Part shown: positions 3,244 through 58,265 of the stretch, piece after piece
How positions within the stretch are numbered: position 1 is the stretch's first letter
Layout of the letters: the number at the start of each line of letters is the position of its first letter
Source: an uncultured Chloroflexia bacterium
GTDB lineage: Bacteria; Chloroflexota; Dehalococcoidia; DSTF01; WHTK01
Assembly (NCBI GenBank): GCA_963711035.1
Contig: CAVQCN010000001.1
Location: 1,025,942-1,089,941 of the forward strand
Direction: 5' to 3'
DNA length: 64,000 nucleotides
Translations under genes and position numbers: made by a program
The notes under the pieces: model-generated
Databases searched by the model: none
Told to the model about the DNA's origin: nothing
What the model saw: only the letters and a program-made list of their open reading frames with translations

Positions 3244-6007
3244 AGTGGCTCCTTACCCCAACTCCGCCAGGCGTGCTTCGACGTCCGCGAGACGTGCCTG
3301 CCGCCGCTTCGAGCCGCTCGCGCGCGGCGGCGACGACCTCGGCGGGTGCGTTGGCCGTGAAGCGCTCGTTCGATAGCTGGGCCTGCGAGCTGGTGACGGC
3401 CGCTTGCGCCTGCGCTCGTTGCTTCTCCAGGTTGGCGCGCTCAGCGGTGAAGTCGAAAAGGCCGGCCAGCGGCAGGATGACCTGGGCGCCGTCCAGCACC
3501 GCCGTTGCCACGCCTTCGGCGGGCGCCTCGCCCCGTTCGGCGATGATGTGCAGCGGCCGCACGCGGGCCAGGTTTTCGATGGCGGCGGTGTGGCGTGACA
3601 TCGCCGCGCCCATGAGGACGTACGTCTCGATCCAGCGGCCTGCGTCGATGTGGCGCTCACGGCGCAGGTTGCGCACCGAGCGCACGATGTCGAGCACCAG
3701 TGCCATCTCTCGCTCCGCCGCGTCGTCGCGCCAGACCTCGGAGGGCTGCGGGTAGGCCGCCAGCATGATCATCTCGGCATCGGCCTCGGGCAGGTGGCTG
3801 CGGACATTGCCCGTGCCGGACCAGATCTCTTCCGTGACGTAGGGCATGTAGGGATGCAGCAGCCGCAGACAGGTATCGAGGACGTGAACAAGCACAGGCA
3901 GGGGCGAGTCGCCGCCATCGCTGCGCAGGCGGGTCTTGGCGATCTCGACGTACCAGTCGCAGAACTCGTCCCAGATGAACTCCTGGATCTCGCGGCCGGC
4001 CTCGCCCAGCTCGAAGCGCTCCATAAGCCGGTCGGCGTTGGCGACGAGGCGTTCGAGGCGCGACAGGATCCAGCGGTCCTCGACGGGCCTCGCGTCCTTC
4101 GCGGCCGGGTCGAGGGCTTCGGCGCGCTGGCCCTGTTCTAAATATGGAAGGATGAAGCGCGAGACGTTCCAGAGCTTGTTGGCAAAGTTGCGCGCCGCCT
4201 CCATGCGCGGCTCTTCCAGGCGCTGGTCGTTGCCGGTGCCGCCGGCCGTGACGAGCTTGTAGCGCAGCGCGTCGGAGCCGTAGCGCGAGGCCAGCACCAG
4301 CGGGTCGACGCCGTTGCCCTTCGACTTGCTCATGCGCTGGCCCTGGTCGTCGCGCACCGTGCCGTGGAAGTAGACGTGCTCGAAGGGCACGTCGTTCATG
4401 GCGTAGATGCCGGTCATGATCATGCGCGCGACCCACAGGAAGATGATGTCGTAGCCCGTCTCCATGACGGAGGTGGGGTAGAAGTAGCGCAGATCGGCGG
4501 TGTCGTCCGGCCAGCCGAGGGTCGACATCGGCCACAGCGCGGACGAGAACCAGGTGTCGAGCGTGTCCTCGTCCTGGATCAGTGCCTCGCCGCCGCAGTT
4601 GGCGCACGCCTTCGGGTCTTCGACCGCGACGGTCATCTCGCCGCACGTATCGCAGTACCAGACCGGGATACGGTGACCCCACCAGATCTGCCGCGAGATG
4701 CACCAGTCCTTGATGTTCTCCAGCCAGTTCTCGTAGACGCGCGTGTGGCGCTCCGGCACCATCTTGACCTGCGTCGTCTTGCCGTCCGGGTTCGTCCAAC
4801 CCTCTCGCACCGCCCGCAGTGCGTCGCCGGCCAGGGAGCGCGGCGTGCCGTCCGGCAGCGTGTCGTACTGCTGGTTCATGGCCACGAACCACTGCTCCGA
4901 CATGAGCGGCTCGACGACGCTGCCACAGCGGTCGCAGACACCGACCGCGTGCGTGTAGGGCTCTTCCTTGACCAGCAGGCCCTGCTCCCGCAGGTCGGCC
5001 ACGATGGCGTCGCGGGCGGCGAAGCGGTCCATGCCGTCGTAGGGCCCGGCTTCATTGTTCATGCGGCCGTCCGGGGCGATGGCGCTAATCAGCGGCAGGC
5101 CGTGGCGCTCGCCGATCTCGAAGTCGACCGGGTCGTGGCCTGGCGTCACCTTGAGGGCGCCGGTACCGAAGACGGGGTCGATGGCGTCGTCCGGGATGAT
5201 AGGCAGCGGCCGGCCGATGATCGGCAGGCGCGCCTTCGTGCCTTGCAGGTGCTTGTAGCGCTCGTCGTCCGGGTGCACCGCGATGGCGCTGTCGGCGACG
5301 ATCGTCTCGGGCCGCGTCGTGGCGATGGTGATGAACTCGCCGGTCTCCTTCTCCTGCGCGTCGAGCAGCGGGTAGCGCACGTGCCAGAGGAACGAGCTGA
5401 GCTCGACGTGATCGACTTCGAGGTCGCTGAGGGCGCTCTGGCAGCCGGGGCACCAGTTGATCAGGCGGTTGCCGCGGTAGATCAGCCCCTTCTCGTAGAG
5501 GTCGACGAAGATGGTGCGCACCGCCTTGGCCGGGCCCGGGTCCATCGTGAAGCGCTCGCGCGTCCAGTCGGCCGAGATGCCCAGGCGCTTGTGCTGCTCG
5601 AAGATACGGGCGCGGTTCTTGTTGACGAAGTCCCACGTGCGCTCGAGGAAGGCGGCGCGGCCGATGTCACGGCGGCTCAGGCCCTCTGCGGCCAGCTGAC
5701 GCTCGATCAGTGTGTGCACGGCAATGGCTGCATGGTCGACGCCGGGCAGCCAGAGGGTCGAGCGGCCCTGCATGCGGCGCCAGCGCACCAGGATGTCCTC
5801 GACCGTATCCATCATGGCGTGACCGAGGTGCAGCTCGCCGGTGAGGTTGGGCGGCGGCATGATGACCGTGAAGGGCTCTTTGGCGTCGTCTACCTGGGGC
5901 GTGAAGGCGCCGGATTGCTCCCAGCGCTGGTAGATCGAGGCCTCGACGGCGGCCGGGTTGTAGGCCTTGGGCATCTCTTCACGGGTACGAGTTGGCTCTG
6001 TCGTCAT
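3194..6007 (-). CDS. valS: Valine--tRNA ligase; the true stop is probably at 3253-3255 in the +1 frame (see findings)
   Basis: 937-aa ORF with HIGH-type PPPNLTGELHLGH, KMSKSKGN, editing domain and C-terminal coiled coil. The last ~20 codons of the track frame are Arg/Gly-rich and overlap hicB. Confidence 0.95.
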   Translation of the reverse strand: MTTEPTRTREEMPKAYNPAAVEASIYQRWEQSGAFTPQVDDAKEPFTVIMPPPNLTGELHLGHAMMDTVEDILVRWRRMQGRSTLWLPGVDHAAIAVHTLIERQLAAEGLSRRDIGRAAFLERTWDFVNKNRARIFEQHKRLGISADWTRERFTMDPGPAKAVRTIFVDLYEKGLIYRGNRLINWCPGCQSALSDLEVDHVELSSFLWHVRYPLLDAQEKETGEFITIATTRPETIVADSAIAVHPDDERYKHLQGTKARLPIIGRPLPIIPDDAIDPVFGTGALKVTPGHDPVDFEIGERHGLPLISAIAPDGRMNNEAGPYDGMDRFAARDAIVADLREQGLLVKEEPYTHAVGVCDRCGSVVEPLMSEQWFVAMNQQYDTLPDGTPRSLAGDALRAVREGWTNPDGKTTQVKMVPERHTRVYENWLENIKDWCISRQIWWGHRIPVWYCDTCGEMTVAVEDPKACANCGGEALIQDEDTLDTWFSSALWPMSTLGWPDDTADLRYFYPTSVMETGYDIIFLWVARMIMTGIYAMNDVPFEHVYFHGTVRDDQGQRMSKSKGNGVDPLVLASRYGSDALRYKLVTAGGTGNDQRLEEPRMEAARNFANKLWNVSRFILPYLEQGQRAEALDPAAKDARPVEDRWILSRLERLVANADRLMERFELGEAGREIQEFIWDEFCDWYVEIAKTRLRSDGGDSPLPVLVHVLDTCLRLLHPYMPYVTEEIWSGTGNVRSHLPEADAEMIMLAAYPQPSEVWRDDAAEREMALVLDIVRSVRNLRRERHIDAGRWIETYVLMGAAMSRHTAAIENLARVRPLHIIAERGEAPAEGVATAVLDGAQVILPLAGLFDFTAERANLEKQRAQAQAAVTSSQAQLSNERFTANAPAEVVAAARERLEAAAGTSRGRRSTPGGVGVRSHCEALQATRLSGRTVGR

Positions 6008-6076
6008 AGCAAGAGCCAGTATACCCAGCGTTTGCGGAGTGGCAGTAGCGCCTCAGCCTTCGGTTCGCGGAGGTGG

Positions 6077-6424
6077 TCAGGCGCGAGCAAGCACGAGGCC
6101 GATCCCCGCCAGGATGAGCGAGAGGCTCGACTGAGGAACAGTGCCAACACGCTCGGTCAACAAAGAACGGTCGAGCGTGACAATCTGCGAGACGTTGGCC
6201 ACGGAGTCGCGGGGCAGATTGGTAACCTCGGCACTGAGCATGACATTGCCAGGAGCGTTCGCCCAGCCCAGATTGCTGGTTAGAGCAACACAGACGACGG
6301 TTCGGATAGCACTTCGATTGAAAGCATCCCCTTGGACCACGACTACTGGTCTACGGAAGCCTGGTCCCGAACCAGACGGTTCCGGCAGGTCGGCCCAGCA
6401 GATGTCGCCTTGTTCGATCACCAC
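6077..6424 (-). CDS. PemK/MazF-family type II toxin (mRNA interferase)
   Basis: 115 aa MVIEQGDICWADLPEPSGSGPGFRRPVVVVQGDAFNRSAIRTVVCVALTSNL...; classic MazF/PemK N-terminus; overlaps upstream antitoxin by 7 nt. Confidence 0.8.
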   Translation of the reverse strand: MVIEQGDICWADLPEPSGSGPGFRRPVVVVQGDAFNRSAIRTVVCVALTSNLGWANAPGNVMLSAEVTNLPRDSVANVSQIVTLDRSLLTERVGTVPQSSLSLILAGIGLVLARA

Positions 6425-6660
6425 TCAGTTGCGGCCAGCGTTCGTCGCGCCGTTGCCGAGACGAAGCGGTCATCGTTCTCTGAGTCGCCGATCTCTTCGA
6501 GAGCCCTGTTGAGGGCGGCAGTCACCTCGTCCTGCGAATGGCGGGATACATATTCTCGGAGTGCGTCCGCATATACCTCGCTGCGGTGGCGTTTGGAAAG
6601 TCGAACCAGCCGTTCAACCGCGTGGAAGAGATCATCTGGAAGCGAAATCGCGGTTTTCAT
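6418..6660 (-). CDS. Ribbon-helix-helix antitoxin (CopG/MazE-like); start may be upstream at 6732
   Basis: MKTAISLPDDLFHAVERLVRLSKRHRSEVYADALREYVSRH... RHH fold; ATG at 6658-6660; track ORF extends to a TTG at 6732. Confidence 0.65.
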   Translation of the reverse strand: MKTAISLPDDLFHAVERLVRLSKRHRSEVYADALREYVSRHSQDEVTAALNRALEEIGDSENDDRFVSATARRTLAATEW

Positions 6661-6740
6661 ACCCTGAGTATAACTCTGACCATCTCCCATTACGAGAAAG
6701 CGCCTGCTCGTCGCAGCTCCAAGGATACTCAACGGGAGTA

Positions 6741-7591
6741 TTCAATCCGGCGAGGTGACGTGGCCCTTGAGCCCGCCGTCGCCCGTGTTCGGGCGGCTGG
6801 ATCGTGCCGGATGAGGGCGTGGCGATTGGTGGTGGCGCTGATGTCGGCGTCGCTTCGGGCGCCGGCGTGGCCGTTTCGACAGCCTCGGGCGCCGGCGTCG
6901 GAGGTTCGGGCGCTGAGCGCGCGGCGCTGATCGCCTGCAGCAGTCCGTTCAGGGGCACGCTGCCGGTGATCGACCAGATCTCGCCGTACGGCGACGAACC
7001 GGCCGGGATTACCAGCTGCGCTTCGGCGCCGGGCAGGTAGGCGTCCAGCAACGGCTTGCTGATCGCCAGCCAGGGTCCGTCTGGCAGCAGTTCGACGGTC
7101 TCGTTATCGACGATGTGGTAGACGAGGCCGGCCCAGCCGAACTCGTCGCCGGTATCGCTGAACAGGACCAGGTAGCGTTCTCCCACCTGGTAGTGGTTGG
7201 CGGCCAGAGGGCAGGAGCTTATCGTGCCGTGGGCTTCGCTCTCGCGCAGGCGCTGCTCGAGGAGTTGGCGCTGGTAGGCGTCGACCTCGATTTGAGCCGG
7301 CGCGGTGCCGGCGCGTACGAGCACGACGCTCAGCGTTGCGCCGACACCGGTCAGGTCGAAGCCCTCGTACGGATTGATGCCGTTCGGCGGCGTGGCGTCG
7401 ATGGGCGGCTGGCTGTTCTCCGGCCCGCCGACCGCCGTCGCCTCGACGATTGCGATCAGTCCGCGCTGCGGGCGGCTTCGTCGATGGTCGCCGGGCCGGG
7501 GCCGGTACAGGCGAGGGCCGGCGGCGCCGGCGTGTTGACCCTCATCAGGGCAAGCATGGCGAGCAGGAAGGCCACGAAGACCACCAAAAGG
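6741..7591 (-). pseudogene. Secreted Pro/Thr-rich surface protein, interrupted by two 1-nt indels; C-terminus carries PPNTGDGGLK but no TM/basic tail
   Basis: Signal peptide MMKRLLVVFVAFLLAMLALMRVNTPAPPALA|C from ATG 7589-7591 stops after 48 codons. A frame change at a CCC/GGG run near 7470 continues into track ORF 6632..7324. A further shift at a GGG run near 6792 gives ...SSGTIQPPNTGDGGLKGHVTSPD* ending at TGA 6741-6743. Confidence 0.5.
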
Positions 7592-7632
7592 CGCTTCATC
7601 ATATGAAGGAAAACGTCACGTTGACTCCGAAG

Positions 7633-8242
7633 TTAATGCCGGTCAAGGAGCCCGCCGTCGCCCGCGTTCGGAGGAGTGACGGTTGGCCCTTGAACCGGAC
7701 CGCAGTCGGCCAGACATGCACCCGCGTTCGTAGGAAGGGCGGTTGGCACCGCCGGAGGCGTCGCCTCTGTTGTCGGCTTGGCAGTTGGCGCCGGGCCGGC
7801 AGGAGCCGTGGTGGGGCTGGGGCCTGGCGTCGGGCAGGGGCCGGGGTCGCAGGGCGGTACGGGCGCGAAGTTGGTCAGCGTCACGCTGGTGCCGGTCGCG
7901 AGGGTGAACCACTGGTTAAACCACCAACCCTGGCCGCTCTTGAACGTGACGATGGCGCCGTCTTGCGCGCAGGCAGCGGGCTGGCCGGCGAGGCCGAGCT
8001 GCAGAACGACGTCGCTCGTGGCCGTTGAGACGTCCGCGCTGGCGCACTGCTCGCCGTCCGCGAACGCGGTGATGCTGCCGAGGCCTTGGCCCTGCGTTGA
8101 TGCCGTTGTCCGTCATGGTCTGCAGGCTGGCGGCGGGAACGATGACTTCGAACGGAGCTGCCTGCTGGCCCTGTGCCGGCGCCGCCAGCACAAGTGCCAG
8201 CAAGGCCAGTACGCCGGCGAGGCTGCCGATCGCGATGCGCAT
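7633..8242 (-). pseudogene. Second secreted Pro/Thr/Cys-rich protein, frameshifted after the signal peptide; C-terminus ...VTPPNAGDGGLLDRH
   Basis: ATG 8240-8242 (AGGAGG 7 nt upstream) gives signal peptide MRIAIGSLAGVLALLALVLAAPAQG. The frame is lost at a CCC run near 8090; the +1 frame continues ...GQGLGSITAFADGEQCASADV...PCDPGPCPTPGPSPTT... to TAA at 7633 (= track ORF 7633..7884). Confidence 0.5.
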
Positions 8243-8374
8243 AGTGAACCTCCTGGAGTCGTGGTCCCGGGCCGCGAGTCCGCCTCGGCGGAAGAGGCCG
8301 CCACGCGGCCCGGTCGCGCGACAGTGTACGAGAGCCAGCCGGGAATTACCCTGCCCGATCAGATGTTCGGGCGA

Positions 8375-8413
8375 ACCTCACCCCCTACCCCCTCTCCGAT
8401 TTCGGAGAGGGGG
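8375..8413. repeat. Left terminal inverted repeat with 11-12-bp G/C hairpin (8388-8413)
   Basis: ccccctctccg / cggagaggggg perfect stem with ATTT loop, preceded by acctcaccccc. Confidence 0.7.
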
Positions 8414-8423
8414 TTAGCCGTAG

Positions 8424-8795
8424 TCAATTGGACGCTGCCTGGATTACGTTCAGCACGGTTGGTAATGAGGTCATGACTTCGTCATTCTTGAAGCGCAGGA
8501 CGTTGAGTCCGATGTTCTCCAGGTAGGCTTGTCGATTGGAGTCATCCTCAATGCTCGTTTCGTGGATTGGCCCGTCCACTTCAACGACGAGCTTTGCTGC
8601 GTGGCAGTAGAAGTCGACGATGAACGGCCCGATAGCGTGTTGGCGCCTGAAGCGCAGGCCGTTCAGCTTGCCGCCGCGCAATTCCTGCCAGAGCATCTGC
8701 TCTGCAGACGTCGGTTCGCGCCGATGTTGTCGTGCTAACGGCTTCAGCTGCTCCCAGATCTGGGGTGGAGTTTGCCACACACGTTCTTCGTCCAT
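8424..8795 (-). CDS. DUF559 (Vsr-like endonuclease fold) domain protein
   Basis: Internal ATG 8793-8795 of track ORF 8424..9014 gives MDEERVWQTPPQIWEQLKPLARQHRREPTSAEQMLWQELRGGKLNGLRFRRQHAIGPFIVDFYCHAAKLVVEVDGPIHE...GLNVLRFKNDEV. The upstream part of the track ORF is Arg/Ser junk. Confidence 0.8.
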   Translation of the reverse strand: MDEERVWQTPPQIWEQLKPLARQHRREPTSAEQMLWQELRGGKLNGLRFRRQHAIGPFIVDFYCHAAKLVVEVDGPIHETSIEDDSNRQAYLENIGLNVLRFKNDEVMTSLPTVLNVIQAASN

Positions 8796-8823
8796 CAGAT
8801 TCTTGGCCGAAGGCCATCGTCCT

Positions 8824-8860
8824 CCCCTCTCCGATTTCGGAGAGGGGCTGGGGGTGAGGT
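8824..8860. repeat. Right terminal inverted repeat (10-bp hairpin 8824-8847 plus gggggtgaggt)
   Basis: Inverted copy of the left repeat; t8860 is shared with the cinA TGA stop (8860-8862, minus strand). Confidence 0.7.
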
Positions 8861-10092
8861 CATCGCAGCGATTGCAGCAGCATGCGCAGCGCCTGGGTGA
8901 CGGCGCGGCGCTTGATCGCCTCTCGCGACTGGGGGAAGTGGAAGCCGATGTCCTGTGACGGCACGGTGTCGCCGCCATCGAGGCTGATGTAGACCTGGCC
9001 GACCGGCGCGCCATCCTGCGGGTCGGGGCCGGCCACGCCCGTGATGCCGATGCCGATGTCGGCCTGCAGGTGCTCGCGGACGGCGGCGGCCATCGCCGAG
9101 GCCGTCTGGGCGCTGATCACGCCGTGCTCTTCGATGATCGCCGGGTCGACGCCCATCATCTCTTTGATATCGGTGGCGTAGGAGACGATGCCGCCGCGAA
9201 AGTAGGCGCTGCTGCCCGGCACGTTGGTGATCGTGTCGGCGAGCAGCCCGCCGCTGCACGACTCCATGACGGCCAGCGTCAGGCCGCGCTCTTTCAGCGA
9301 CCGGCCGGCTGAGCTCTCCAGCGTGTCGTCGTCCGCGCCCCAGACAGAGGGCCCGAGGATGCGGCGCGCCTCCTCTTCGATCGGAGTGAGCAGGGCCAGC
9401 GCCTCTTCTGGCGTCGCGGCCTTGGCGCCGATGCGCACGTGGATGCCGTCGCCGCGTGCGTAAACGCCTATCGAGGGGTTCACGGACTTGAGCAGCGGGC
9501 TCAGCATCTCGTCCACGCTGCCTTCACCGATGCCGACCGTCTTCAGGGTGCGCTTCACGAGCACCGCGCCGTCGGAGCGGCGCAGCAGTTCCGGCGCGAC
9601 CTCCTCGTCCCACATGCGCATCATTTCTGGCGGCACGCCTGGCATGGCGACGATGATCTTGCCGTCGCGTTCCACCCACCAGCCGGGAGCGGTGCCGCGT
9701 GGGTTGGGGATGTCTCGCGCCGATGGGATGAGCCAGGCCTGCTTCAGGTTGCGCTCCGGCATCACGCCGCCGGCACGGCGGGCGAACCAGGCGCGCAGCT
9801 CTTCTTCGAGGCGTGGGTCTATGGCGGGCTCTTCGTTGAGGACGGCGGCGATTGCCTCGCGCGTGAGGTCGTCCTCCGTGGGGCCGAGGCCGCCGGTGAT
9901 GATGACGAGGTCGCTCTCATCGCGGGCGTGCGACAGGACGTCGACAATGCGGCCGAGGTTGTCGCCCACGGTGTGCTTGAAGTAGACGTCGATGCCGAGC
10001 GCGGGCAGCCGCGAGGCCACATAGGCGCTGTTGGTGTCGATGATCTCACCCAGCAGGATTTCGGTGCCGACGGCCATGATCACAGCTCGCAT
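8860..10092 (-). CDS. cinA: CinA-family competence/damage-inducible protein (MoCF-binding + NMN deamidase PncC domains)
   Basis: 410 aa MRAVIMAVGTEILLGEIIDTNSAYVASRLPALGIDVYFKHTVGDN...VIITGGLGPTEDDLT...; full-length two-domain CinA. Confidence 0.9.
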   Translation of the reverse strand: MRAVIMAVGTEILLGEIIDTNSAYVASRLPALGIDVYFKHTVGDNLGRIVDVLSHARDESDLVIITGGLGPTEDDLTREAIAAVLNEEPAIDPRLEEELRAWFARRAGGVMPERNLKQAWLIPSARDIPNPRGTAPGWWVERDGKIIVAMPGVPPEMMRMWDEEVAPELLRRSDGAVLVKRTLKTVGIGEGSVDEMLSPLLKSVNPSIGVYARGDGIHVRIGAKAATPEEALALLTPIEEEARRILGPSVWGADDDTLESSAGRSLKERGLTLAVMESCSGGLLADTITNVPGSSAYFRGGIVSYATDIKEMMGVDPAIIEEHGVISAQTASAMAAAVREHLQADIGIGITGVAGPDPQDGAPVGQVYISLDGGDTVPSQDIGFHFPQSREAIKRRAVTQALRMLLQSLR

Positions 10093-23495: not shown

Positions 23496-23592
23496 GCCAG
23501 TGCATGGCGCGCAAACCGCGCGGAGTGTCTCCGCAATGCGGATCGTGAGAGAAGCCGTCCAGCGGTGGGTGCTCGTGTAGTGGGGAGTTGTT

Positions 23593-32580: not shown

Positions 32581-34936
32581 GTGAGGATGAGTGGTCGATT
32601 AGCGGCTCTGCTGTTGCTGATAGCGCTGGCGATCGGTGTTTCGATTGGCGGCGGCGATCGCGTGGCGGAGGCGCATGCCCTTCTGGTGCGTGCCGATCCT
32701 CCCGTGAACTCGCAGCTGCGCACGCCGCCGACCGAGCTCACCCTGTACTTCAGCGAGCCCCTGGAGCAGAAGTACAGCACCGTTCGGGTGGTGGACCAGA
32801 ACAACGCGCGCGTCGACGACCACGTGGAGTTCGACGACACCAACAACGCGGTGATGCACGTCTTTCTCAAGGACGTGCAGCCTGGCTACATCACGGTAGA
32901 CTGGGCGACTGTCTCGCTGGTAGACGGTCACCGAGTTACTGGCAGCTACCCACTCACCATCCTCAATCCTGACGGCAGCGTGCCGGCCGGCAAACCACCG
33001 TCGGCCGGCAGCTCCGTCAGTGGCACCAACGCTGACGTGATCCGCGTCATCGCGAAGTGGTTCATCCTGGCCGGCGCTGCCTTCCTCACCGGCGCGATGG
33101 CCTTTGTCGTCTTCATCTCGCCGATCTTCCAGGGCCCGGCTGCCGAGCGTTCCCGGCGGGCGCTGGACCGCGTCGCGCTGATAATCGCCGGTGTGTCGCT
33201 GGTGGTGATGCTGCTGGCGGGGCTCCTCGAGCTACAAAGGCAGGCGCACATCATCGGCGTCAGTATCAGCTCCGTGCTCGATACTCGTTGGGGGCGGCGC
33301 TGGCTGGCACGGCTGGTCGTCACTGGCGTCATCGTCGTGCTGACAGCCAGCCTCGTCGTTACGAAGCCCGGCTCAGCGCGCCGTCTTGTCGGCGGGCTGG
33401 GGTTCATCGGCTGCCTGGGCTTCCTGGGGCTCGTCTCGAGCGTCAGCCACAGCGCGGCAGGCGATGGCGCCTTCTGGGCGGCCGGCGCCGACTTCATTCA
33501 TCTGCTGACGGCGTCGCTGTGGATCGGACTGCTCGCCCTCATGGCCGTCATGTTCATCTACGGCCGGCGTCTGGCGGACGGTGAGCGCTACCAGGTGCTC
33601 GCGGCCGGCCTGCAGCGCTTCTCCGCGATCGCCGTGATCAGCCTGGCGCTGTTGCTGTTCACCGGCACTTTCAACGCCGTGATCGAGGTGGGACAGCTCT
33701 CCGACCTGCTGCACTCCGGCTACGGCTTCACGCTGCTGCTCAAGCTGCTGCTGATCATCCCGTTGCTGGCCGTCGGCATCGTGAACGCGTACATCCTGCG
33801 GCCCGAACTCGTCACGGAGCTGGCGGTGCCGGGCAACCCGCAGGGCCATCGAGAGACGCTGCGCCATCTGGAGGCACGGCTGCGCAACTTGATCCGGGTC
33901 GAGCTGGCGCTGGCGCTGGGTGTGCTGGCGATCGTCGCCGTGCTCGTGCAGCTGACGCCGACCCGAGGACGGCTCGATGTGGGCGGTCAGGCGGGCAAGT
34001 ACATTCAATCGATGGATCAGGATGGCATCTCCGCCACGCTGGTGGTCGACCCGAACCAGCCCGGCATCAATACGTTCGAGGTCGATATCACGGGCGCCGT
34101 CGATACGGTGCAGCAGGTGCGGCTCGACTTCACCCAGCCCGGCACCAACGAGGCGCGCCTCGTCCTCGAGGCTTCCAACTCCAACCCGGCGTATTTCTAC
34201 CTGGGCAAGGGCCCGTACCTGGGTCAGCCTGGCGACTGGCAGATCGGCGTCGACATCCGGCGCAGCGTTGGCAACGACCTGCTCCTGCCGTTCAAAGTAA
34301 CCGTGCCGGCCAGTCCGTCGGCGTCGGCAACCAGCCCGGAGAATGCCTTCGCCTTCCCTGTGTCGCTGACCGTTGGCTCGGCCGCGTTGCTGGCCCTTGC
34401 CGGCGTCCTGGCGCTGGGCTTCGTCTACGCAGGCGTGGCGCGTCCGGGCCGGCCGGGTGGCTACGCCGGCCCGATCGCGATCGGGCTGGCGGGTCATATG
34501 CCTCGCTGGCGTCCCGCGTATTCCCTCGGTGGGCTGATCATCATCGGCGTTGGCCTTGGATCTGCTATTCGGGGCTCATTCGCATTCGGCGTTGTCGAAC
34601 AAGCAGGCGACGGCGGGCAATCCCGTCCCGTCGACGGCTGCGTCGATCCAGCGCGGCGAGACGTTGTTCATGAACAACTGCACGCAGTGTCACGGCCAGG
34701 ACGGTCGCGGCGACGGGCCCCTCGCCAACTCGCTGCCTATCAAGCCCGCCAACCTGTACGACCACGTTCCGTACCACGCGGACCAGTTCTTCTTCAGCCT
34801 CATGACCAACGGCATCGCCGGCTATATGCCGGGGTTCAAGGACACGATCAGCGAGCAGGACCGCTGGAACATCCTCAACTTCCTGCGCAGCAAGTTCGGC
34901 CAGCAGCCGGCCACGTCGCTGGCCGGCTCACCGTGA
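32581..34936 (+). CDS. CopC-CopD fusion (copper resistance/transport) continuing into a class I cytochrome c domain; reading frame broken at a GGGG run near 34571-34574
   Basis: N-terminal CopC (AHALLVRADPPVNSQL...), ~8-TM CopD region; track frame decays into Arg-rich junk after ...IIIGVGLGSAI; adjacent ORF 34550..34936 has CTQCHG (CxxCH) cytochrome c domain but no signal peptide. Confidence 0.75.
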
Positions 34937-36252: not shown

Positions 36253-36261
36253 GAGGATGTC

Positions 36262-37183
36262 GTGGCGAACACACTGAGTGCTGAAGATCGCATCCGGGTG
36301 ATGGAGCTCATCGCCGACTACGCCATCAATCTGGATGGCGGCTACCTCGATCGGTACGTGGGCAGCTTCACGCCGGACGCCGCACTGACGAATCGCACCG
36401 GGAGCTACGAGGGAGAGGCGACGATCCGCGACTACGTCGGACACCTGATCGAGATCGGCCAGGCGGGTCCGGCGTCGGGCATCCGCCATTTCATCGGCCT
36501 GCCGCTGCTTCAGGGCGACGGCGATTCCTGTCACGCCAGCGCCTACCTCGCGATCCCCGGCTCGCTCGACGGCGGACCCATCGTCACCTACCTGGTGGGT
36601 GTCTACGAGCTGGACTTCGTCAAGTTGGGCGGCGATTGGCGGTTCAAGATTCGTCATTCGCGTATGGACCTGATCGGCCCCGACCGTCCCGTCGGTGAAC
36701 CGGTGACCGAGCGCAGCTTCCCCGCACCGCCGCGCCGTCAGGACTCGATGAGCGCCGAGGACAAGATCGAGGTGATCGACCTGCTGGCAGGCTACGCGTT
36801 CCTGCTGGATGGCGGCGACGCTGCCGGGTACGCGGACCAGTTCACGCCGGACGGCGTCTTCGATGGCGGTGGCGATCCGGTTCGCGGCCGCGCGGCCATC
36901 GAAGAGCTCGTCAGAGGCATCGTCGAACGCAACGCCAGTCGAGGCACGAAGATGCGCCACATGATGGGCATCCCGTCGATCCGCGGCGACTCGCAGAGCT
37001 GCGAAGCGGAGACCTATCTGCTTCTCCTCCGCCAGGCTGGTGACGGGCCGATCGAGATACGGACCATCGGCTTCTACCAGGACGAGATCGTCAAGCACGA
37101 AGGGCGCTGGCGTTTCCAGAAGCGCACGTTCCGGCCCCAGATTACGGGCGGGAGAGCAAGCGGAGGACGCGGCCGGTCGGGTA
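36262..37183 (+). CDS. Tandem NTF2-like/SnoaL-like domain protein; 3' end uncertain
   Basis: Two repeats of ...DRIRVMELIADYA...LDGGDW(R)FK(I)R... / ...DKIEVIDLLAGYAFLLDGGD...EGRWRFQKRTF; the track frame has no stop until 38211 and runs antisense through lysC; a +2-frame TAG lies at 37181-37183. Confidence 0.6.
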
Positions 37184-37188
37184 GTTCG

Positions 37189-38419
37189 TCAGGCCAGCTC
37201 GGCCGGCTCTGCTTTCTCCAGCTCGAACGCCTTGTGCAGGGCGCGCACCGCGTCGGCGACCTTGTCCTCGCTGATGATGCAGGTGATGCGGATCTCGCTG
37301 GTCGAGATCATCTCGATGTTGATGCCCGCGTCGTAGAGCGTGCGGAACATGCGCGAGGCAAAGCCGGGGGCGCTCTGAATGCCGGTACCGACGATGCTCA
37401 CCTTGCCGATGCGATCGTCGGACGCCACGCCGGCGGCGTTGAGCTGCCCTGCCACGCGTTCGACGATGGGCATGGCGCGCTCGAGGTCGCCCTTGGAGAC
37501 GGTGAACGTGAGGTCGGCCAGCCCTTCGGCGGAAGCGTTCTGGACGATCACGTCGACCGAGAGGTGCGCTTCGGCCATCGGCTCGAACACGGACGCGGCG
37601 ATGCCGGGCCGGTCGGGCACACCGCGCAGAGTGATCTTCGCGACGTCCATGTCGTGGGCGATGCCGCGCACGCGGTTGAACTGCTCCATAGCGATGCCTC
37701 CGTGGATCAGGGTGCCGGGCGCCTCCGTGAAGCTCGAGGCGACGTAAATCGGGACGTTGTACACGGCCGCGATCTCGACCGACCGCGACTGCATAATCTT
37801 CGAGCCCTTGCTGGCCAGCTCGAGCATCTCCTCGTAGGTAATCTCGGGCAGCTTGCGGGCGTCCGGCTCCACGCGGGGGTCGGCGGTGTACACGCCGTCC
37901 ACGTCGGTAAAGCGCTCGCAGCGGGCGCCGAGCACCGCGGCCATGGCGACGGCGGTCAGGTCGGAAGCGCCGCGGCCCAGGGTGGTGACGTCGAGGTCTT
38001 CGGTGATGCCCTGGAAGCCCGCGATGATGACGACGCGCCCGGCGGCGAGCTCGCGGCTCACGCGGTCGGGCTCGATGCCGAGGATGCGGGCGCGGCTGTG
38101 CACGGAGTCGGTGCGCAGGCCGGCCTGGGCGCCGGTCAGGCTAGATGGCGTCGACGCCCATGTTGTGCAACGCCATCGCCATCAGCGTGCTGGAGACGAT
38201 CTCGCCCGTAGAGAGGAGGACGTCCATCTCGCGGTCGGTGGGGTTCTGGTTGATCTGGTGCGCCAGCTCGATCAGCTCGTCGGTCGTGTCGCCCATGGCG
38301 GAGACGACGGCGACGACGTCGTTGCCCTCGGCCTTGCGGCGGGCGATGCGCTGCGCGACGGCGCGGATGCGGTCGGCGTTGGCGACGGAGGAGCCGCCGT
38401 ATTTCTGGACGATGAGCAT
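37189..38419 (-). CDS. lysC: Aspartate kinase, interrupted: N-terminal 92 codons (38141..38419) and C-terminal 304 codons (37189..38103) in different frames
   Basis: [52 protein letters not shown]...HNMGVDAI* then, in another frame, [28 protein letters not shown]...VIIAGFQG...two ACT domains. Confidence 0.85.
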
Positions 38420-48121: not shown

Positions 48122-48142
48122 CTGAGGATGGCTCCTTCTGGA

Positions 48143-52003: not shown

Positions 52004-52577
52004 GTCTGGGTGCTTCACCCCATCGTTGAGCACCGGTGGGCGTGCGGTCAGTCGAGGCGTCGGCCGCGGGCGTAGCGGGGACCTTAAGGTCGCCACGCGC
52101 GCCCCGTCGGGCACGACCCTGACCTCGGCGTTTTGGACGATGGCCTGTGGTTGGACGGGACGCGGCGGCAGCATGAAGGCTGCCGCTACAGATCAGGCAG
52201 CGCCGCGGCCGCTTCCTAAATGCGCGACGTAACGTAAACGCTAGGCGTAAGTTGCATGCTGCGGTGTCAGAGCTGCGTTGATCTGCGCGTTGGCGCGTGT
52301 ATAACGATGGGCAAGTTTGGCGCCAGCGCGTCTCTTCCCACACGTAGGAAACGTTAAAAATGCATAAATATAAGGGGTAACCCTCACGCTGCACGTTGAC
52401 GGCCCTGATATACTCCGTCGTGGCTGTTGGCTAAAGCAGCCGGCCGCAAAGCGGCCCCTTTCTCCTGCGCGCTTACGGGGAGGTGGCGGGCGCGACCGAC
52501 AAGGGACAGTCGGGCGTGTCTCCCAGGCGCCAAGACCGGCTCGGTCGGGTGATCGGCCGGATCACACCCTCGCGGAG

Positions 52578-53866
52578 GTGCAGAACATGCTCAAATCGTC
52601 CTGGAAGTTATTGCCTATAGCGGCGGCGTTCGCATTGGGCATCGCGGTCGTTGGCGCCCGGGGACGTCACGCACGCCTACGGCGTTCGTCGCGCTCGATT
52701 GCCAGCGCCATCGGCGTTCTCACGGTTGACATCGGTCGACGACAGCACAGGCAAGTCGGATCACTGGCGGCCGAGATGCGGTGATCTGACATCGACGCCT
52801 CGAGCCCAACGATGACAGCGGTACGCGAAACTTACACTGCACAATGGCTCAGGTGATGATTCAGAGCTCGATCGAGTCGGATCCAGGACGGCAATTCCGT
52901 TCGCTCGACACGCAGCGGTGCACGGCCAATACGACATCAGCCTCACAGTCTGCCTGACCCGTACGTCGGCTGCGATGTCGTTGACAGCTCGATTCAGCAA
53001 CTGAGCTGGTCGAGCCAGACGGCACTGTCCACCTCACCTGTCAAACGGACAACATCACGATCAAGAAGGACGCGCCCGACGACCCGAGCAAGGACTTCGA
53101 CTTCACGATCAGTGGCCCCGGTAGCGGCTGCGACGACAGCTTCACGCTGGCTGACGGCGACACCCAGTCCTACTCTTGTACGGCGAGTGATTCGACCTAC
53201 GTTGTGACGGAAGACGTTCCCACCGGCTGGTCACTTGACACGCTGACCTGCACGGACACTGGCAACGGCAGCTACGAGACGAATGTCGCCAATGGCAGCG
53301 TTTCCATTACGCTGCAGGACAACACCGACACGGTTTCCTGCACCTTCGTTGACAATCAGGTGACGGGCACCGCGACGCCGGGTACGGCCAACAGCGTTAC
53401 GCTGCAAGTCTCCACCACGACGCCGCCCTGCAACCTGCCCGTCGTCGTCATTGCGACGGTGAGGGACGCTAGTGGCGCCCTGGTCAGTGGCGCACCGGTC
53501 ACGTTCAGCGCGGCCAGCGGTGCGTTCACATCGAGCTCCGGCACCACTCAGGCTGGTGTCGTCTCCACCCTGTACACTGCGAGCGGCAATGGCGCCGCCG
53601 TGATTACGGCGACCTCCGGCTCCAAGAGCGGCACGGCGACGATCACGACGTCGAGCTGCGCAACGCCGGCCCCGACCGCAGTTGCCACGTCGACGCCGGT
53701 TCCGACCGTCTCGACCGGCAGCATCCAGCCGCCGAACACCGGTGACGCTGGTTTGAAGGACGCGGGCAGCGGCAGCTCGAGCCTGTACGGCATCATTGCT
53801 GCTATTGTGGCTATCATGTCGACTGCTGCGGCTGGCTCCATCGTGGTAGCGCGCCGCCGGTCCTAA
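52578..53866 (+). pseudogene. Cell-wall-anchored surface protein (sortase substrate) with PPNTGD sorting signal; N-terminal third disrupted by frameshifts, intact frame from 52985
   Basis: 52578 ORF encodes only a signal peptide (MQNMLKSSWKLLPIAAAFALGIAVVGA) before junk. The frame opening at 52985 has no start codon but reads a coherent repeated module (DFDFTISGPGSGCDDSFTLADGDTQSYSCTAS...VVTEDVPTGWSL...). It ends ...TGSIQPPNTGDAGLKDAGSGSSSLYGIIAAIVAIMSTAAAGSIVVARRRS*. Confidence 0.55.
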
Positions 53867-54035: not shown

Positions 54036-54818
54036 ATGTTCCAAGATACCGACCCCGAGGAATCCGAAGAGTCCAACGGACTCTTCGGAGGCCGACCTCC
54101 TTTGCCGATCATCGGTGGTGTCATTGCCGCCGTCGTCATCGGTCTCATCCTGGTAGTCGTCGTCTTTAGCAGCGGCGGCGGCAACGACAACAACTCCAAC
54201 GCTCTTGCCACGATCACGCCGACGAGCAAGGCCCAGAGCGGTGGATTGGCGACCGGCGGTATCCCGTCGCCGCAGGGCACCCTTGATTTGACCCGCCCGA
54301 CGGTCACCGGCGCGCCCAGCCTGACCGGCGTCGGCGCCGACGATCGTATCGTCATCCCCGCCTTCAACATCAACGCGCCTCTTACTTTCAAGACGGTGGG
54401 CGCAGACGGCGAGATGCCCAACCCGGACGGACCCGATGACGTTGCCTACTACAACTTCTCGGCCTGGCCCGGTCTGGGCGGTGCTCCCGGCCAGGGCGGC
54501 AACTCCATCTTTGCCGGTCACGTCGACTCGGGTTTCAAGGCCTGCGACCACGGCACGGTCCCGCCGCCTTGCGAGGCTGTCTTCTGGGACGTGAGTAAGC
54601 TGAAGGTTGGCGACACCATCGAGATCCACGTTAGCGGGCAGGTCTACACCTACTCCGTAACCTCGAACCAGGCAGTGGATGCGAACGGCGCCGATTGGAC
54701 TAGCATCGTTTCCGCCACGGCGCAGGAGAGCATCACGCTGATCACCTGTGGTGGCGATTTCAATACCCAGACTCACGAGTACAATCACCGGCAAGTCGTG
54801 ACGGCGGTCAGGGTTTAA
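54036..54818 (+). CDS. Sortase family transpeptidase (class E/F-like), N-terminal TM anchor
   Basis: 260 aa; TM IIGGVIAAVVIGLILVVVVF; ...RIVIPAFNINAPL...NSIFAGHVD...ITLITCGG...HEYNHRQVVTAVRV (His, Cys, Arg catalytic triad contexts). Confidence 0.85.
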   Translation: MFQDTDPEESEESNGLFGGRPPLPIIGGVIAAVVIGLILVVVVFSSGGGNDNNSNALATITPTSKAQSGGLATGGIPSPQGTLDLTRPTVTGAPSLTGVGADDRIVIPAFNINAPLTFKTVGADGEMPNPDGPDDVAYYNFSAWPGLGGAPGQGGNSIFAGHVDSGFKACDHGTVPPPCEAVFWDVSKLKVGDTIEIHVSGQVYTYSVTSNQAVDANGADWTSIVSATAQESITLITCGGDFNTQTHEYNHRQVVTAVRV

Positions 54819-54882: not shown

Positions 54883-55755
54883 GTGAATCTGCCGGCATTC
54901 TTGGAAGGTGTTCCGCGGTGGATGCTTCTCGCCGTGATTCCGATTACGGCGTTCGTGGTGGCTGTGGGCGTGAGCTTTGGCATGAGCGGCAGCGACAACT
55001 CGACCACGAGTGGCAGCTTGAAGCCGGACGTCGGCGCGCTGGCGGAGCTGACTACGCCCACGCCTCTTCCGACGGCGACGGTCGTTCCCACCGCTACGGT
55101 GATTCCCGTTCGCACGAGTTGTGATGAGATTGCCGGAACCCCCTACCGCTCCCAGATTGAGCGCCAGTGGTACCTGGACAACTGCACCGACACCGCGGGT
55201 GCCTCCACCGGCGGCGGCGGCACCGGCGGCACCGGCGGAAGCATTGACTACTCGACGCAGGGACCGGTGAACGCCGGCGGCGGCGAGTTCGCGCTCGGTG
55301 ACGAGCTGATCATTCCGTCCATTGGCCTCGATGCGACCGTGTATGGCGACAAGGTCGGCGGCGACGGCACGATGCCGAACCCGGTTGGCTACTTCTACGC
55401 CGTGTGGTACGACTTCAGCGCCTTCCCTGGTCTCGGCGGATACGTCGGCAACGGCAACACGGTTCTTGCCGGCCACGTCGACTGCGCTCGCTGCCACAAC
55501 GGCTCGGCCGGCGCGGCGGTCTTCTGGAACGTCCGCAACCTCTCCCCCGGTGCGAGCATCCAGTACCGGACGTCGGACGGCGTGGTGCACAACTACGTGG
55601 TAACCGCGTCGCAGGACTACACGGACGCTTCGAACTGGGGAGGAATCCTTTCGTCCGGCGCTGCGGACCTGACGCTGATCACGTGTAACGGCGTCTTTGA
55701 TCCGTCTGCGCATGAGTACAACCTGCGCCACGTCGTCTACGCCAAAGCGGTGTAG
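54883..55755 (+). CDS. Sortase family transpeptidase (tandem paralog)
   Basis: 290 aa; TM LLAVIPITAFVVAVGVSF; ...LIIPSIGLDATV...NTVLAGHVD...LTLITCNG...HEYNLRHVVYAKAV. Confidence 0.85.
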   Translation: MNLPAFLEGVPRWMLLAVIPITAFVVAVGVSFGMSGSDNSTTSGSLKPDVGALAELTTPTPLPTATVVPTATVIPVRTSCDEIAGTPYRSQIERQWYLDNCTDTAGASTGGGGTGGTGGSIDYSTQGPVNAGGGEFALGDELIIPSIGLDATVYGDKVGGDGTMPNPVGYFYAVWYDFSAFPGLGGYVGNGNTVLAGHVDCARCHNGSAGAAVFWNVRNLSPGASIQYRTSDGVVHNYVVTASQDYTDASNWGGILSSGAADLTLITCNGVFDPSAHEYNLRHVVYAKAV

Positions 55756-55812: not shown

Positions 55813-55829
55813 GAAGGTGCTGGCGCTCA

Positions 55830-56391
55830 GCGGTGCGACGAGTTGGCTGCGCAGCGTGCCGGCTGCATCCTGTGGCCGGACGCGTGGAGTCGATTCGCCG
55901 TAGTCCTCGGGGTCGACCTCGAGTACGATCAGGGCCGGGCCACCCGACGAGAGGATGCCGGGCAGCCGCTCACGCAGCACGCCGATGTCGTCGAAGCTCT
56001 CCGACTGGTGATAGCCGGCACCGCGGCCCAGCGCGGCGAAGTCGACCTTGTCGCCGCCGGGCGTGATCTGCTTGCCTGAGGTCTCGTAGACGCGATTGAC
56101 GAGGACGAAATGGTAGTAGTTGGCCGGCTCGGCGCCGGCCACGCTGGCGAGGCCGCCCAGCTGCATGAGCAGGCTGCCATCCCCATCGATGACGTAGATG
56201 CGGCGGTCGGGCTGCGCCAGCGCCAGGCCCAGGCCCAACGACGCGGCGCCGCCCATGCAGCCGATGCAGTCGATGTGGCGCTCGCCGGCGGCGCCGGACT
56301 CTGCCCAGGGCAGGACGGAGCGCATCGTCGTAACGCTGACGCCGTCGCCTTTGGTGGCGGCGATGAGCTCGATTGCCTCGTCACGCTTCAT
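55830..56391 (-). CDS. Sulfopyruvate/phosphonopyruvate decarboxylase beta-subunit-like (TPP-binding C-terminal domain); 3' end uncertain
   Basis: Internal ATG 56389-56391 gives MKRDEAIELIAATKGDGVSVTTMRSVLPW...IDCIGCMGGAASLGLGLALAQPDRRIYVIDGDGSLLMQLGGLASV...; the track frame has no stop until 54808 and runs antisense through the sortase gene. Confidence 0.6.
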
Positions 56392-56404
56392 GCTCTGGTC
56401 CCGT

Positions 56405-56920
56405 CTAGGAGGTTGGCGCGCCGAGCAGCACAATCGTAGGACAGCGCTCCTCCCGGCTCTGGATGAAGGCCTCGCGCAGGAAATGGACGTCCTCTGGACC
56501 GTCGATCAAGTAGCAGGGCACGCCGAGTGTCTGCATAACCGGCGCGATGAGGCGCGTAGCGCTGTTCTGGCGCTCGTCGATGGGCAGATTGACGTCGCGG
56601 CCGAACTGGCCGACGACCATGCAGGTCGGCACGCGCATGTCCATGGCGATGCCGCGCAAGGCGTTCATGCCAGCAAAGACGCCGACGTTCTGGATCATGA
56701 CGAGGGGGTTGGCGCCGCCCATCCAGAGACCGGCGTTGGTGCAGACGGCCTCGTGCTCGGTGCTGAGGGTGACGAGGGTGAAGCGCGGGTCTTCGGTTAC
56801 AGCCTGCAGGAGGGTGCGCTGGTGCGTGTCGGGCACATTGACGATGTGGGTCACACCCAGCGCTACGATCTCGTCGTGCAGCAGAGCGGCCGGTACCGAC
56901 TGGACTACGGGAGTGGTCAT
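56405..56920 (-). CDS. Sulfopyruvate/phosphonopyruvate decarboxylase alpha-subunit-like (TPP enzyme N-terminal domain)
   Basis: Internal ATG gives MTTPVVQSVPAALLHDEIVALGVTHIVNVPDTHQRTLLQAV...CTNAGLWMGGANPLVMIQNVGVFAGMNALRG...; immediately upstream of the beta-like gene. Confidence 0.7.
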   Translation of the reverse strand: MTTPVVQSVPAALLHDEIVALGVTHIVNVPDTHQRTLLQAVTEDPRFTLVTLSTEHEAVCTNAGLWMGGANPLVMIQNVGVFAGMNALRGIAMDMRVPTCMVVGQFGRDVNLPIDERQNSATRLIAPVMQTLGVPCYLIDGPEDVHFLREAFIQSREERCPTIVLLGAPTS

Positions 56921-57008
56921 AAAGCTCCTCTGAGGCTGACTGAGTCGAGGGACATTATAGACGGGCCGCGGCTTGCCGCCCACGTCGCCAGATTGCAGAA
57001 TGACGAGT

Positions 57009-57100
57009 GGAGAGGTGGCAGAGTGGTTGAATGCGGCGGTCTCGAAAACCGTTATACGGGTTCTCTCGTATCCAGGGTTCGAATCCCTGCCTCTCCGCCA
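57009..57100 (+). tRNA. tRNA-Ser (anticodon CGA), type II with long variable arm, CCA encoded
   Basis: GGAGAGG acceptor 5' arm / CCTCTCC 3' arm + G + CCA; D-loop AGTGGTTGAA; anticodon loop CT-CGA-AA; variable stem-loop CGTTATACGGGTTCTCTCGTATC; T-arm CAGGGTTCGAATCCCTG. Confidence 0.9.
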
Positions 57101-57139
57101 TTCCGATTCTAAAACTTAGGTAAAGCTAGCATCGAAAGA

Positions 57140-57161
57140 GCCGCCCGAGAGGCGGCTTTTT
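57140..57161 (+). terminator. Rho-independent terminator after tRNA-Ser
   Basis: gccgcc-cgaga-ggcggc followed by ttttt. Confidence 0.6.
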
Positions 57162-57259
57162 CGTCGTTTGACAGCAGTTCTGACAGCAACCTGGGCGGAC
57201 GTTGGCAACTGTAGATGGATTTTTGGGCCGATTCGGGTCGCTTCGAAATATTCGCGGGG

Positions 57260-58265
57260 CTAGGCTTCGGCGAAAAGGACCTGCATCTTCTTCGCAGCGT
57301 CAGCATGGATGGCTGGCGTGACGTGGGAGTAGGTGTCTAGCGTCAGGGTGACTGTGCTGTGGCCGAGCAGCTCCTGGACGATCTTGGGGTTCTCGCCGCG
57401 GGCCAGGTAAAGGGTGGCTGCGGTGTGCCGCAGGTCGTGCACACGAACGCGCGGCAGGCCAGCGCGGCCGAGGATTCGGGTGAGGCAGGGCCCAGGCGAG
57501 CTTCTCTTCGATCTGCTGGCGTCGGTGCTCCCGCAGCGCCTGGGCGGTCCCTTCCGGGAAGTAAACGGTTCTCCGGCTCTTGGTCGTCTTTGGGCCAACG
57601 AAGACGAGGCCGACACCCTTTTGGCGTTGCAGAGCGCGCCGGACAATGAGGCGATTCTGGTCCAAGTCGAACTCGTCCCAGCGTAACCCAGTGGCTTCAC
57701 CAACACGGAGGCCGGTGGAGGCGAGGAGCACCCAGAGGGCATGCAGACGATGATCCTGTGTCGCCGGAAAGAAGCGCCTGACTTCGTCTTCGCTGAGAGT
57801 GTGCATCTCGTTGCGTTCGGGTCGAGGCACGCTCACCGCTTCGGAGGGATTTCGACCGATGGAGCCCCACTGCACCGCTCTCTCGAGAGCTTTGTGCAGA
57901 ACAGTGTGGACTTGGACCACAGAGCGTCGGCTGAGGCCACGTTCGATTAGATCGGCGTATGCTCGTTCGATTGCGGCCGGGGTGAGTGTGCTCAGACGAA
58001 TGCGGCCAATCAACGGCTTCAGGCGCCGAACGTTGAGGTCGTAGGACTCGTAGGTTCGCGGCCGTACGCTGCCTTCTTTAGCCCCGAGAAGTCTTCCGCG
58101 AGCATGAAGGCCACAAGACTGACCCACATGATCCATTCGTCCGGGAAGAACGGCGTCCGGGCTGGGCATCAATCGCTCGGTCGAGCGATAGCCCGTACGC
58201 CGTCCAAGGCTAGATTCGCCTATCCAAACGGCTCTCTTCGAGTGCCGATTGGACGCTTCGCCCAA
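57260..58265 (-). pseudogene. Tyrosine-type integrase, disrupted: N-terminal/core in 57300..58265, catalytic C-terminus in a different frame (57260..57742)
   Basis: Frame A: ...LRWDEFDLDQNRLIVRRALQRQKGVGLVFVGPKTTKSRRTVYFPEGTAQALREHRRQQIEEKLAW then junk; frame B: ...LGRAGLPRVRVHDLRHTAATLYLARGENPKIVQELLGHSTVTLTLDTYSHV...*. About 25-30 aa normally found between these segments are missing. Confidence 0.8.

Follow-up and report, generated by a model that had tools for sequence, protein, structure and literature searches.

Frameshifted genes in a 64-kb segment of an uncultured Dehalococcoidia genome: probable consensus errors beside probable gene decay

A 64,000-nucleotide stretch of contig CAVQCN010000001.1, referred to below as the window, was analysed with respect to its broken reading frames. 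The stretch belongs to the genome of an uncultured soil member of the Dehalococcoidia; it has a G+C content of 65%, and a search with its DnaE gave matches solely to metagenome-assembled genomes (MAGs) of Chloroflexota/Dehalococcoidia, with at most 80-82% amino-acid identity. Nine of the approximately 60 genes in the window are disrupted, namely valS, lysC, a copC-copD-cytochrome c fusion, a comE-like gene, a tandem SnoaL_4 (NTF2-like) gene, the genes of two secreted proteins (numbered 2 and 3), a sortase-substrate gene and a tyrosine integrase gene. Free-living bacteria typically carry a few per cent of pseudogenes, and the disruption seen here exceeds chance; an earlier note on this DNA, which had counted at least eight broken genes, was correct in this respect. 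The lesions are best read, with a probability of about three in four, as being of two kinds: isolated single-base events that are consensus errors of an unpolished long-read assembly, and probable real decay of the integrase and of the 5' part of the sortase-substrate gene.

Reading frames were examined by codon-usage frame plot, and the proteins of relatives were aligned to the window by tblastn and by a frameshift-aware protein-to-DNA dynamic programme. Syntenic loci were taken from relatives around dnaE (L001-L067), valS (L068) and the comDE-sortase cluster (L069-L072), and Illumina-derived JGI/Logan contigs (L073-L075) with about 83-84% DNA identity were compared as well. Domains were read from Pfam profile matches. 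The nearest relatives are Dehalococcoidia MAGs, several of which (L056, L006 and L007) come from the Microflora Danica long-read set. The codon-usage signal was found to be equally strong on either side of each break.

The valS gene (3253-6007, minus strand) has one extra G at 3301/3302 (GCG GCG [G] CAG), and all of the homologues used, at least seven in number, put a +1 event at 3301. The extra base exchanges the last 17 residues of the tRNA-binding arm for an out-of-frame tail of 35 residues, and the Pfam match to this arm ends at profile position 51 of 66. The homologues all end in ...RERLEAA(Q/R)(S/A)RL..(V/I)EARLAELG; the true frame of the window finishes in ...ARLADVEARLAELG followed by TAA, with the stop codon at 3253-3255. 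One extra G accounts for the frame switch without any change of length, and the tail read in the shifted frame agrees with the homologues, which bears out the site that had been proposed near 3300. In lysC, which encodes aspartokinase (37189-38419, minus strand), one extra T at 38143 (ATC[T]AGC) creates an in-frame TAG after residue 92 of about 410. The position, which had been given as about 38141, is supported by eight relatives and by the Illumina-derived JGI contig L073, against which the lesion is the sole one-nucleotide gap in 2.6 kb (L073 reads ATC AGT). The two halves of the gene are 95.7% and 95.9% identical to L073, with ratios of non-synonymous to synonymous substitution (dN/dS) of 0.09 and 0.05, and both halves are under strong purifying selection.

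The copC-copD-cytochrome c fusion (copCD; 32581-34936, plus strand) contains an extra A or T at 34560/34561 (GGA[T]CTG). All eight relatives set the +1 event at 34561, where it splits the cytochrome c domain from the CopCD body; accordingly, Pfam places CopC and CopD in one frame and Cytochrome_CBB3/Cytochrom_C in another. The break had been recognized earlier and stands, but it had been assigned to the GGGG at 34571-34574, which is wrong, the true site lying some 10 nt upstream. A lesion at GGGG would leave SAIR where the homologues have hydrophobic residues (L/I-V/I-L/V-G), and LLFG from the shifted frame fits much better.

The comE-like gene (55827-56400, minus strand) encodes the beta subunit of a thiamine pyrophosphate (TPP)-dependent decarboxylase and has an extra C or G at 55839/55840 (CT[C]G TCG). 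Its stop codon is lost, and the open reading frame (ORF) is thereby extended by 355 codons that lie antisense to a sortase gene. Among the matches listed, the homologues are mostly 182-199 amino acids long and end 2-7 residues past RSQL; if one base is skipped at 55839/55840, the window reads RSQL-SHR-TGA (stop codon at 55827-55829), which corresponds codon for codon to RSQL-AHS-TAG of the closest homologue. This places the lesion within the region, about 55830-55900, to which it had been attributed. The tandem SnoaL_4 gene (36262-37152, plus strand) reads AGA at the position of its stop codon (37153-37155), and its ORF, having no natural stop, continues antisense across lysC to 38211. The closest homologue, P0241 (84% identical), ends in RPQIQAG-TAA, where the window has RPQITGG-AGA. 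The lesion is ambiguous on the letters of the window, since either a T may have been lost from TAG or TGA may have been substituted to AGA, the two being indistinguishable; of the earlier claim of an indel at 37134-37183, the loss of the stop can therefore be kept, and the single-nucleotide indel may equally be a substitution. Between the convergent SnoaL and lysC genes, the window (37153-37191) lacks 47 nt of the intergenic region when compared with L073 (1272-1351). In L073 this region contains a G+C-rich hairpin (GCAGGGGCTCAGCATGCTGAGCCCCTGC), probably a bidirectional terminator.

For secreted protein 2, a search of the full library revealed a family of proteins of 260-290 amino acids with a signal peptide, an ACTGGPGP motif and a PPxTGD(A/G)GL(R) end (P0248-P0263). 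The gene of secreted protein 2 (about 6742-7602, minus strand) has two lesions. Immediately ahead of the C-terminal PPNTGDGGLK motif, an extra C at 6791-6793 gives CCGCC[C]GAAC, as against CCGCCGAAC in the paralogous motif of the sortase substrate; the family member P0257 puts this +1 event at 6787. The site had been proposed near 6792, and it is indeed a CCC that is made. In the N-terminal part, one base is lost within 7456-7473, with the best fit at 7459 (GAC[C]TG), and the loss yields a TGA at 7456-7458, downstream of both signal peptide and ACTGPGP motif. Eight of nine homologues indicate an event of the deletion type at 7458-7491, and the resulting fit, ...IDEAARSAD/LIAIVEATAVGG, is equal in length to ...FDEAVREAD/AGAVVQVTAVGG. 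An indel had been expected near 7470 in a GGG/CCC run; the indel is there, and it is one C of a CC that is lost rather than a base of a longer run.

In the gene of secreted protein 3 (7633-8242, minus strand), a net +1 lesion at 8090-8112 is indicated by the frames and the codon usage: the signal peptide lies in a frame different from that ending in PPNAGDGGLLDRH*, which carries the C-terminal PPNAGDGGL motif, and codon usage switches at 8093-8112. No homologue was obtained that would place the lesion to the base, so that the frameshift suggested near 8090 is upheld, with its attribution to a CCC not resolved to the base. The three events in these two genes may be either errors or biology. In the family of small secreted proteins, seen in the window at 6742-7602 and 7633-8242, the PPxTGD(A/G)GL(R) motif ends the protein directly, with neither a hydrophobic segment nor a charged tail after it, and in the sortase substrate (53700-53866, plus strand) the same motif, IQPPNTGDAGLK, is followed by an ordinary membrane anchor and RRRS. 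Motifs of the IQPPNTGDAGLK type may be what the two adjacent sortases (54036-54818 and 54883-55755) recognize.

The sortase-substrate gene (52587-53866, plus strand) encodes a protein with SpaA_4 and Big_1 domains, the IQPPNTGDAGLK motif, a transmembrane segment and RRRS, and is damaged over 52587-53001. Its signal peptide, from 52587, is out of frame with the body of the protein (52985-53866), and the N-terminal part is divided among three frames, which change at least five times in about 350 nt and contain an in-frame stop. Alignment with the L072 orthologue puts the changes at about 52647, 52684, 52830, 52951 and 53001, positions which are approximate, the homology being weak. Several breaks had been noted at 52578-52985, and these are real features of the sequence; the pattern is not one of isolated single-base indels.

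Orthologues of this gene are disrupted in relatives too, at about 13.6-13.9 kb (minus strand) in L069, L070 and L071 and at about 13.9 kb (minus strand) in L072, both sortase genes being intact throughout. L069-L071 are three assemblies whose polymorphism consists mostly of single-nucleotide polymorphisms (SNPs), some of them apparently inactivating, as seen from differing gene calls, together with multi-base tandem duplications and a 228-nt deletion. All three orthologues have the same tandem duplication of 20 nt (CCGGCCCTTACCGGTTCATG, two copies), located precisely where the signal peptide is cleaved; the unit is present in two copies in each of the three, with no variation in copy number. 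The 228-nt deletion lies near the 3' end of the gene in L070. In L072, which is another species, about 41 nt are deleted in the signal peptide. The other disrupted genes of the window are unbroken in the higher-quality relatives, and events in copCD and lysC occur also in the error-ridden L056. The gene is thus damaged independently in relatives, and the damage to its 5' part in the window is probably genuine decay of a dispensable surface protein.

Upstream of the same gene, a leader of about 130 nt (52440-52586, plus strand) is approximately 95% identical to its counterparts in L072 and L070; at the protein level, identity is about 50% for the coding sequence behind it and 72-80% for housekeeping proteins. 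In a consensus fold the leader forms several stems (-47 kcal/mol), two compensatory pairs are present, and the 3' arm reaches the GGAGG before the start codon. No match to the leader was found in Rfam, where only the tRNA of the window was detected. The leader is a candidate cis-regulatory RNA, proposed from three sequences, which are too few to judge it.

In the tyrosine integrase remnant (57260-58265, minus strand), the Pfam catalytic domain is divided between two frames. The match to profile positions 3-82 ends at 57525, and that to positions 101-169 starts at 57523 in the other frame, so that about 18 profile positions are missing, which corresponds to a deletion of about 54 nt at the junction (57523-57525). 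The larger deletion that had been suspected at 57480-57560 is therefore present, and the N-terminal arm-binding domain is missing as well. The remnant adjoins a tRNA-Ser(CGA) gene at 57009-57100, and downstream of it the G+C content is 59-60%, marking an island. The lower-G+C segment extends to 64000 and contains a P-type ATPase (58823-61345), a BON-domain protein (62399-63100) and a universal stress protein (63105-63635). The region 57009-64000 looks like an old integrated island, and the damage to the integrase is probably genuine decay of the old element. In L072 an intact integrase of 378 amino acids is found at the equivalent place beside comD.

The spectrum of the isolated lesions is narrow. 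Six events are resolved to the base, five of them single-base insertions (valS, copCD, lysC, comE-like and secreted protein 2 at 6791-6793) and one a loss of one base (secreted protein 2, about 7459); all seven events that could be typed are of 1 nt, and in six of these one base is extra. A frameshift-aware survey of about 45 syntenic conserved genes revealed no further reproducible frameshift and no nonsense codon. The density of lesions in the sortase-substrate gene and the two secreted-protein genes is far above the background of the window, and a mixed lesion spectrum is seen in the integrase and the sortase substrate and not in valS, lysC, copCD or the comE-like gene.

It had been stated that most of the indels lie at C/G homopolymers and that miscalling of such runs was the mechanism, and neither statement holds. 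The events in copCD, lysC and the comE-like gene involve no run at all, that in valS makes GG, the N-terminal event of secreted protein 2 removes one C of CC, and only the C-terminal event of the same gene makes CCC; hence, just one of the six base-resolved events ends in a run of three. Stray insertions, at positions that are non-repetitive or in runs of 1-2, thus make up most of the mapped events. Runs of at least three cover 10.3% of the positions in the window (the longest run is 7), and G/C runs of at least three occur every 41 nt, so that a run will be found by chance near any roughly placed site.

As a control, the same frameshift-aware alignment was applied to all relatives. The Nanopore-only MAG L056 showed 29 events in 5019 codons, of which 28 were +1 insertions; two events each were found in L006 and L007, one in L002, and none in the Illumina-derived L004 or in L024. 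At the nucleotide level, dnaE of L056 carries four private single-base insertions at non-run positions, none of which is present in dnaE of the window, L001 or L004. No cell would be viable with dnaE broken four times, and the +1 signature is therefore an artefact of assembly in Nanopore-only data. The events of the window share this signature in type and context, at lower density. The L056 locus itself (CAVYAY010000002.1, MFD04944.bin.2.8, 1-23766) has a single-base insertion in about every 500 nt of coding sequence, which makes the proteins predicted from it unreliable.

The Microflora Danica long-read catalogue is Nanopore-only; its MAGs were assembled with Flye (--meta --nano-hq), followed by one round of Medaka and by no short-read polishing (PMC12313526). 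Sereika et al. (2022) reported that Nanopore bins with a coverage below about 40x require short-read polishing and otherwise give fragmented gene calls (PMC9262707). The lesions of the window are present in the public record: the public gene call P0001 (926 amino acids), a singleton, is 100% identical to ValS of the window, including the frameshifted tail, the next best ValS being 77% identical, and it sits on one contig of 1,295,826 bp in both NCBI and ENA. As both P0001 and a second public gene call, P0247, have frameshifted tails, the lesions belong to the deposited assembly. Exact-protein look-ups with CTP synthase, P0001, the truncated LysC fragment and P-II led to no second assembly of the species in any of the collections. 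In metagenome contigs, a DNA pattern across the lysC site, with or without the extra base, had no match, and a scan with the LysC protein gave nothing above 85%.

It is proposed that the seven or eight isolated single-base lesions, in valS, lysC, copCD, the comE-like gene, the SnoaL gene, secreted protein 2 (two) and secreted protein 3, would be errors left in the consensus of a long-read metagenome assembly, probably a Nanopore-only one, which had received no polishing with accurate reads. In the organism itself the genes would be whole, and the type of error would be that of L056, stray bases inserted at ordinary positions, and not a miscalled homopolymer length. The integrase, with its deletion of about 54 nt, and the sortase substrate, with its many frame changes over about 350 nt, would in turn represent genuine decay. 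The preference for sequencing or assembly error over biology, expressed earlier for the whole set, is therefore sustained for the isolated single-base events. Four considerations lead to this reading of them: the genes affected are conserved, probably essential and otherwise look functional (in lysC, the dN/dS values of 0.09 and 0.05); the conserved genes, about 45 in number, show frameshifts only and no nonsense codons, unlike the genuine polymorphism among L069-L071, which consists mostly of SNPs; the same +1 signature occurs in the Nanopore-only L056 and in neither L004 nor L073, which are Illumina-derived; and the workflow behind the related MAGs omits the short-read polishing that Nanopore bins below about 40x need. 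The platform of the contig, and with it the lack of support for the inserted bases in the reads, is presumed from this likeness.

Several points weigh against the proposal. The platform of the contig is only inferred, and neither reads nor an independent assembly of the species were found. Three events fall in the 1.5 kb made up by the two secreted-protein genes, for which the window-wide rate predicts about 0.2 (P about 0.001); three lesions, those of valS, the comE-like gene and the SnoaL gene, lie in the final few codons; and no lesion is seen in dnaE, pyrG, rho, murJ or the nuo genes. The signal of conservation that accompanies an error would be the same for a real mutation of very recent origin, and selection acting on real mutations would explain both the clustering and the position at gene ends. 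The clustering in accessory DNA would also be explicable by low coverage or strain mixing, and lesions at gene ends may stand out because run-on ORFs catch the eye.

Among the other explanations, the one that survives best, though it is doubtful, is that the contig is the consensus of a strain mixture, in which both alleles of a synonymous third-position SNP were kept by a graph-based consensus and left a one-base insertion. Three of the sites can be read in this way, ATC/ATT as ATCT in lysC, GGA/GGT as GGAT in copCD and CTC/CTG as CTCG in the comE-like gene, where dropping either of the two adjacent bases gives a synonymous codon, and more events would be expected in accessory regions, where strains differ most, as is the case. 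However, chance alone is estimated to produce this pattern in about 40% of random insertions, so that three of four is not significant, and the insertions in valS (GG) and in secreted protein 2 (CCC) depart from it.

It is unlikely that all lesions are real, that is, that the organism has an unusual load of very recent frameshifts, including those in lysC and valS, owing to relaxed selection, a mutator background or a small population. The clustering of the lesions in genes of accessory surface proteins and, in three genes, at the very 3' end, where real mutations would be better tolerated, speaks for it, as do the genuine inactivating polymorphisms in the neighbourhood of the relatives, namely nonsense SNPs in a luciferase-like gene, the 228-nt deletion in the sortase substrate and the 20-nt duplication. 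Nevertheless, real mutation would have to give at least six +1 insertions and no nonsense codon in about 45 conserved genes; lysC, cut at residue 92 of about 410, still has a dN/dS of 0.05-0.09 on both sides; the stop losses would lengthen two enzymes by about 350 residues; and at the density seen in L056, with its dnaE broken four times, the +1 signature is biologically impossible. A slightly less probable version still combines real frameshift alleles, even in lysC and valS, with repeated and independent inactivation of sortase-linked surface proteins across lineages, at which the different N-terminal lesions in three related lineages hint. That the lesions of the surface proteins and the integrase alone are genuine is rather probable, and would be ordinary if so.

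Regulation of surface-protein expression by phase variation or programmed frameshifting can be all but dismissed: four of the disrupted regions do lie in secreted or sortase-linked proteins, and the 20-nt duplication at the cleavage site in three strains of a relative is reversible in principle, but the sites stand in runs of 1-3 with no long homopolymer or short-repeat tract (the window maximum being 7), the copy number of the 20-nt unit is constant in those three strains, no conserved slippery sequence was seen, the homologues of ValS, LysC, CopCD, the comE-like protein and secreted protein 2 are single-frame at the positions of the lesions, and housekeeping genes are affected too. The earlier proviso that the clustering in surface-protein genes could be genuine decay or phase variation is thus retained for decay, given the N-terminal lesions of the sortase substrate in relatives, and dropped for phase variation, given the lack of a long repeat tract.

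Three known phenomena offer a comparison. In genome decay, as in Mycobacterium leprae and recently host-restricted bacteria, nonsense mutations, deletions and frameshifts occur mixed and under relaxed constraint. The many disrupted genes in a short stretch resemble this, and it suits the remnant of the integrase and the surface-protein gene with its several breaks; in contrast, the conserved genes of the window show single-base insertions only and are under strong purifying selection, housekeeping genes nearby are intact, and the genomes of the relatives, at about 3 Mb, are typical of free-living bacteria. Contingency loci undergo phase variation through slipped-strand mispairing in surface-protein genes, and the frameshifts recall them in that they affect the 5' parts or the tails of proteins that are secreted or anchored to the cell wall; unlike such loci, the sites have no long homopolymer or short tandem-repeat tract, and tract length does not vary among related strains. 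Watson and Warr reportedly described, in 2019, indel errors that cause frameshifts in unpolished long-read assemblies. The window is like unpolished long-read genomes and metagenomes in that single-base indels split or extend conserved genes without substitutions (PMC9262707; PMC12313526), in that the contig is very long, and in that related MAGs from that workflow have the same lesions. It differs in that the literature on long-read errors stresses homopolymer length, mostly in long runs, and the positions here are non-repetitive, on a platform that is deduced.

The consequence is a warning about data quality: in this and similar unpolished MAGs, gene calls and counts of pseudogenes would be wrong at about one gene in seven, with miscalls affecting the biosynthesis of lysine and threonine, copper handling and a TPP-dependent decarboxylase. 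Public protein databases already contain frameshifted products (P0001 and P0247), and stray insertions at ordinary positions would pass through any filter designed for homopolymers. If, on the other hand, the lesions were real, a broken aspartokinase in a free-living soil bacterium would be surprising.

A number of further candidates were considered and rejected. The frame switches at 1361 and 2204 are those of the separate overlapping genes nuoA-D. Events at 48122 and at 56405/56558 arose from stop-to-stop ORF queries that took in upstream sequence, and that at 23589 from an enoyl-CoA hydratase which begins with TTG at 23593. Events at the C-terminus of dnaE were seen with some relatives only, in a variable region, and with none of the closest relatives. 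The P-type ATPase (58823-61345) has no C-terminal Pfam match, yet its transmembrane region is intact and in a single frame. The gap between nuoA and valS is not a broken DUF2269 gene and holds a HicAB-like pair instead.

The surroundings of valS differ from those in the relative L068 on both sides. In L068, cinA and valS adjoin; in the window they are separated by an insert of 2.85 kb (6008-8860), which contains a MazF/PemK toxin gene (6077-6424), an RHH antitoxin gene (6418-6732) and the two secreted-protein genes. A DUF559 endonuclease-like gene (8424-9014) and flanking short repeats, which are translated as PSPKSERG and PLSDFGEG, are also associated with the insert. On the other side of valS (2700-3243, minus strand), a HicB-like antitoxin ORF (2983-3243) with a HicA-like toxin ORF downstream, both recognized by eye from the translation, stands where L068 has a DUF2269 gene between valS and nuoA.

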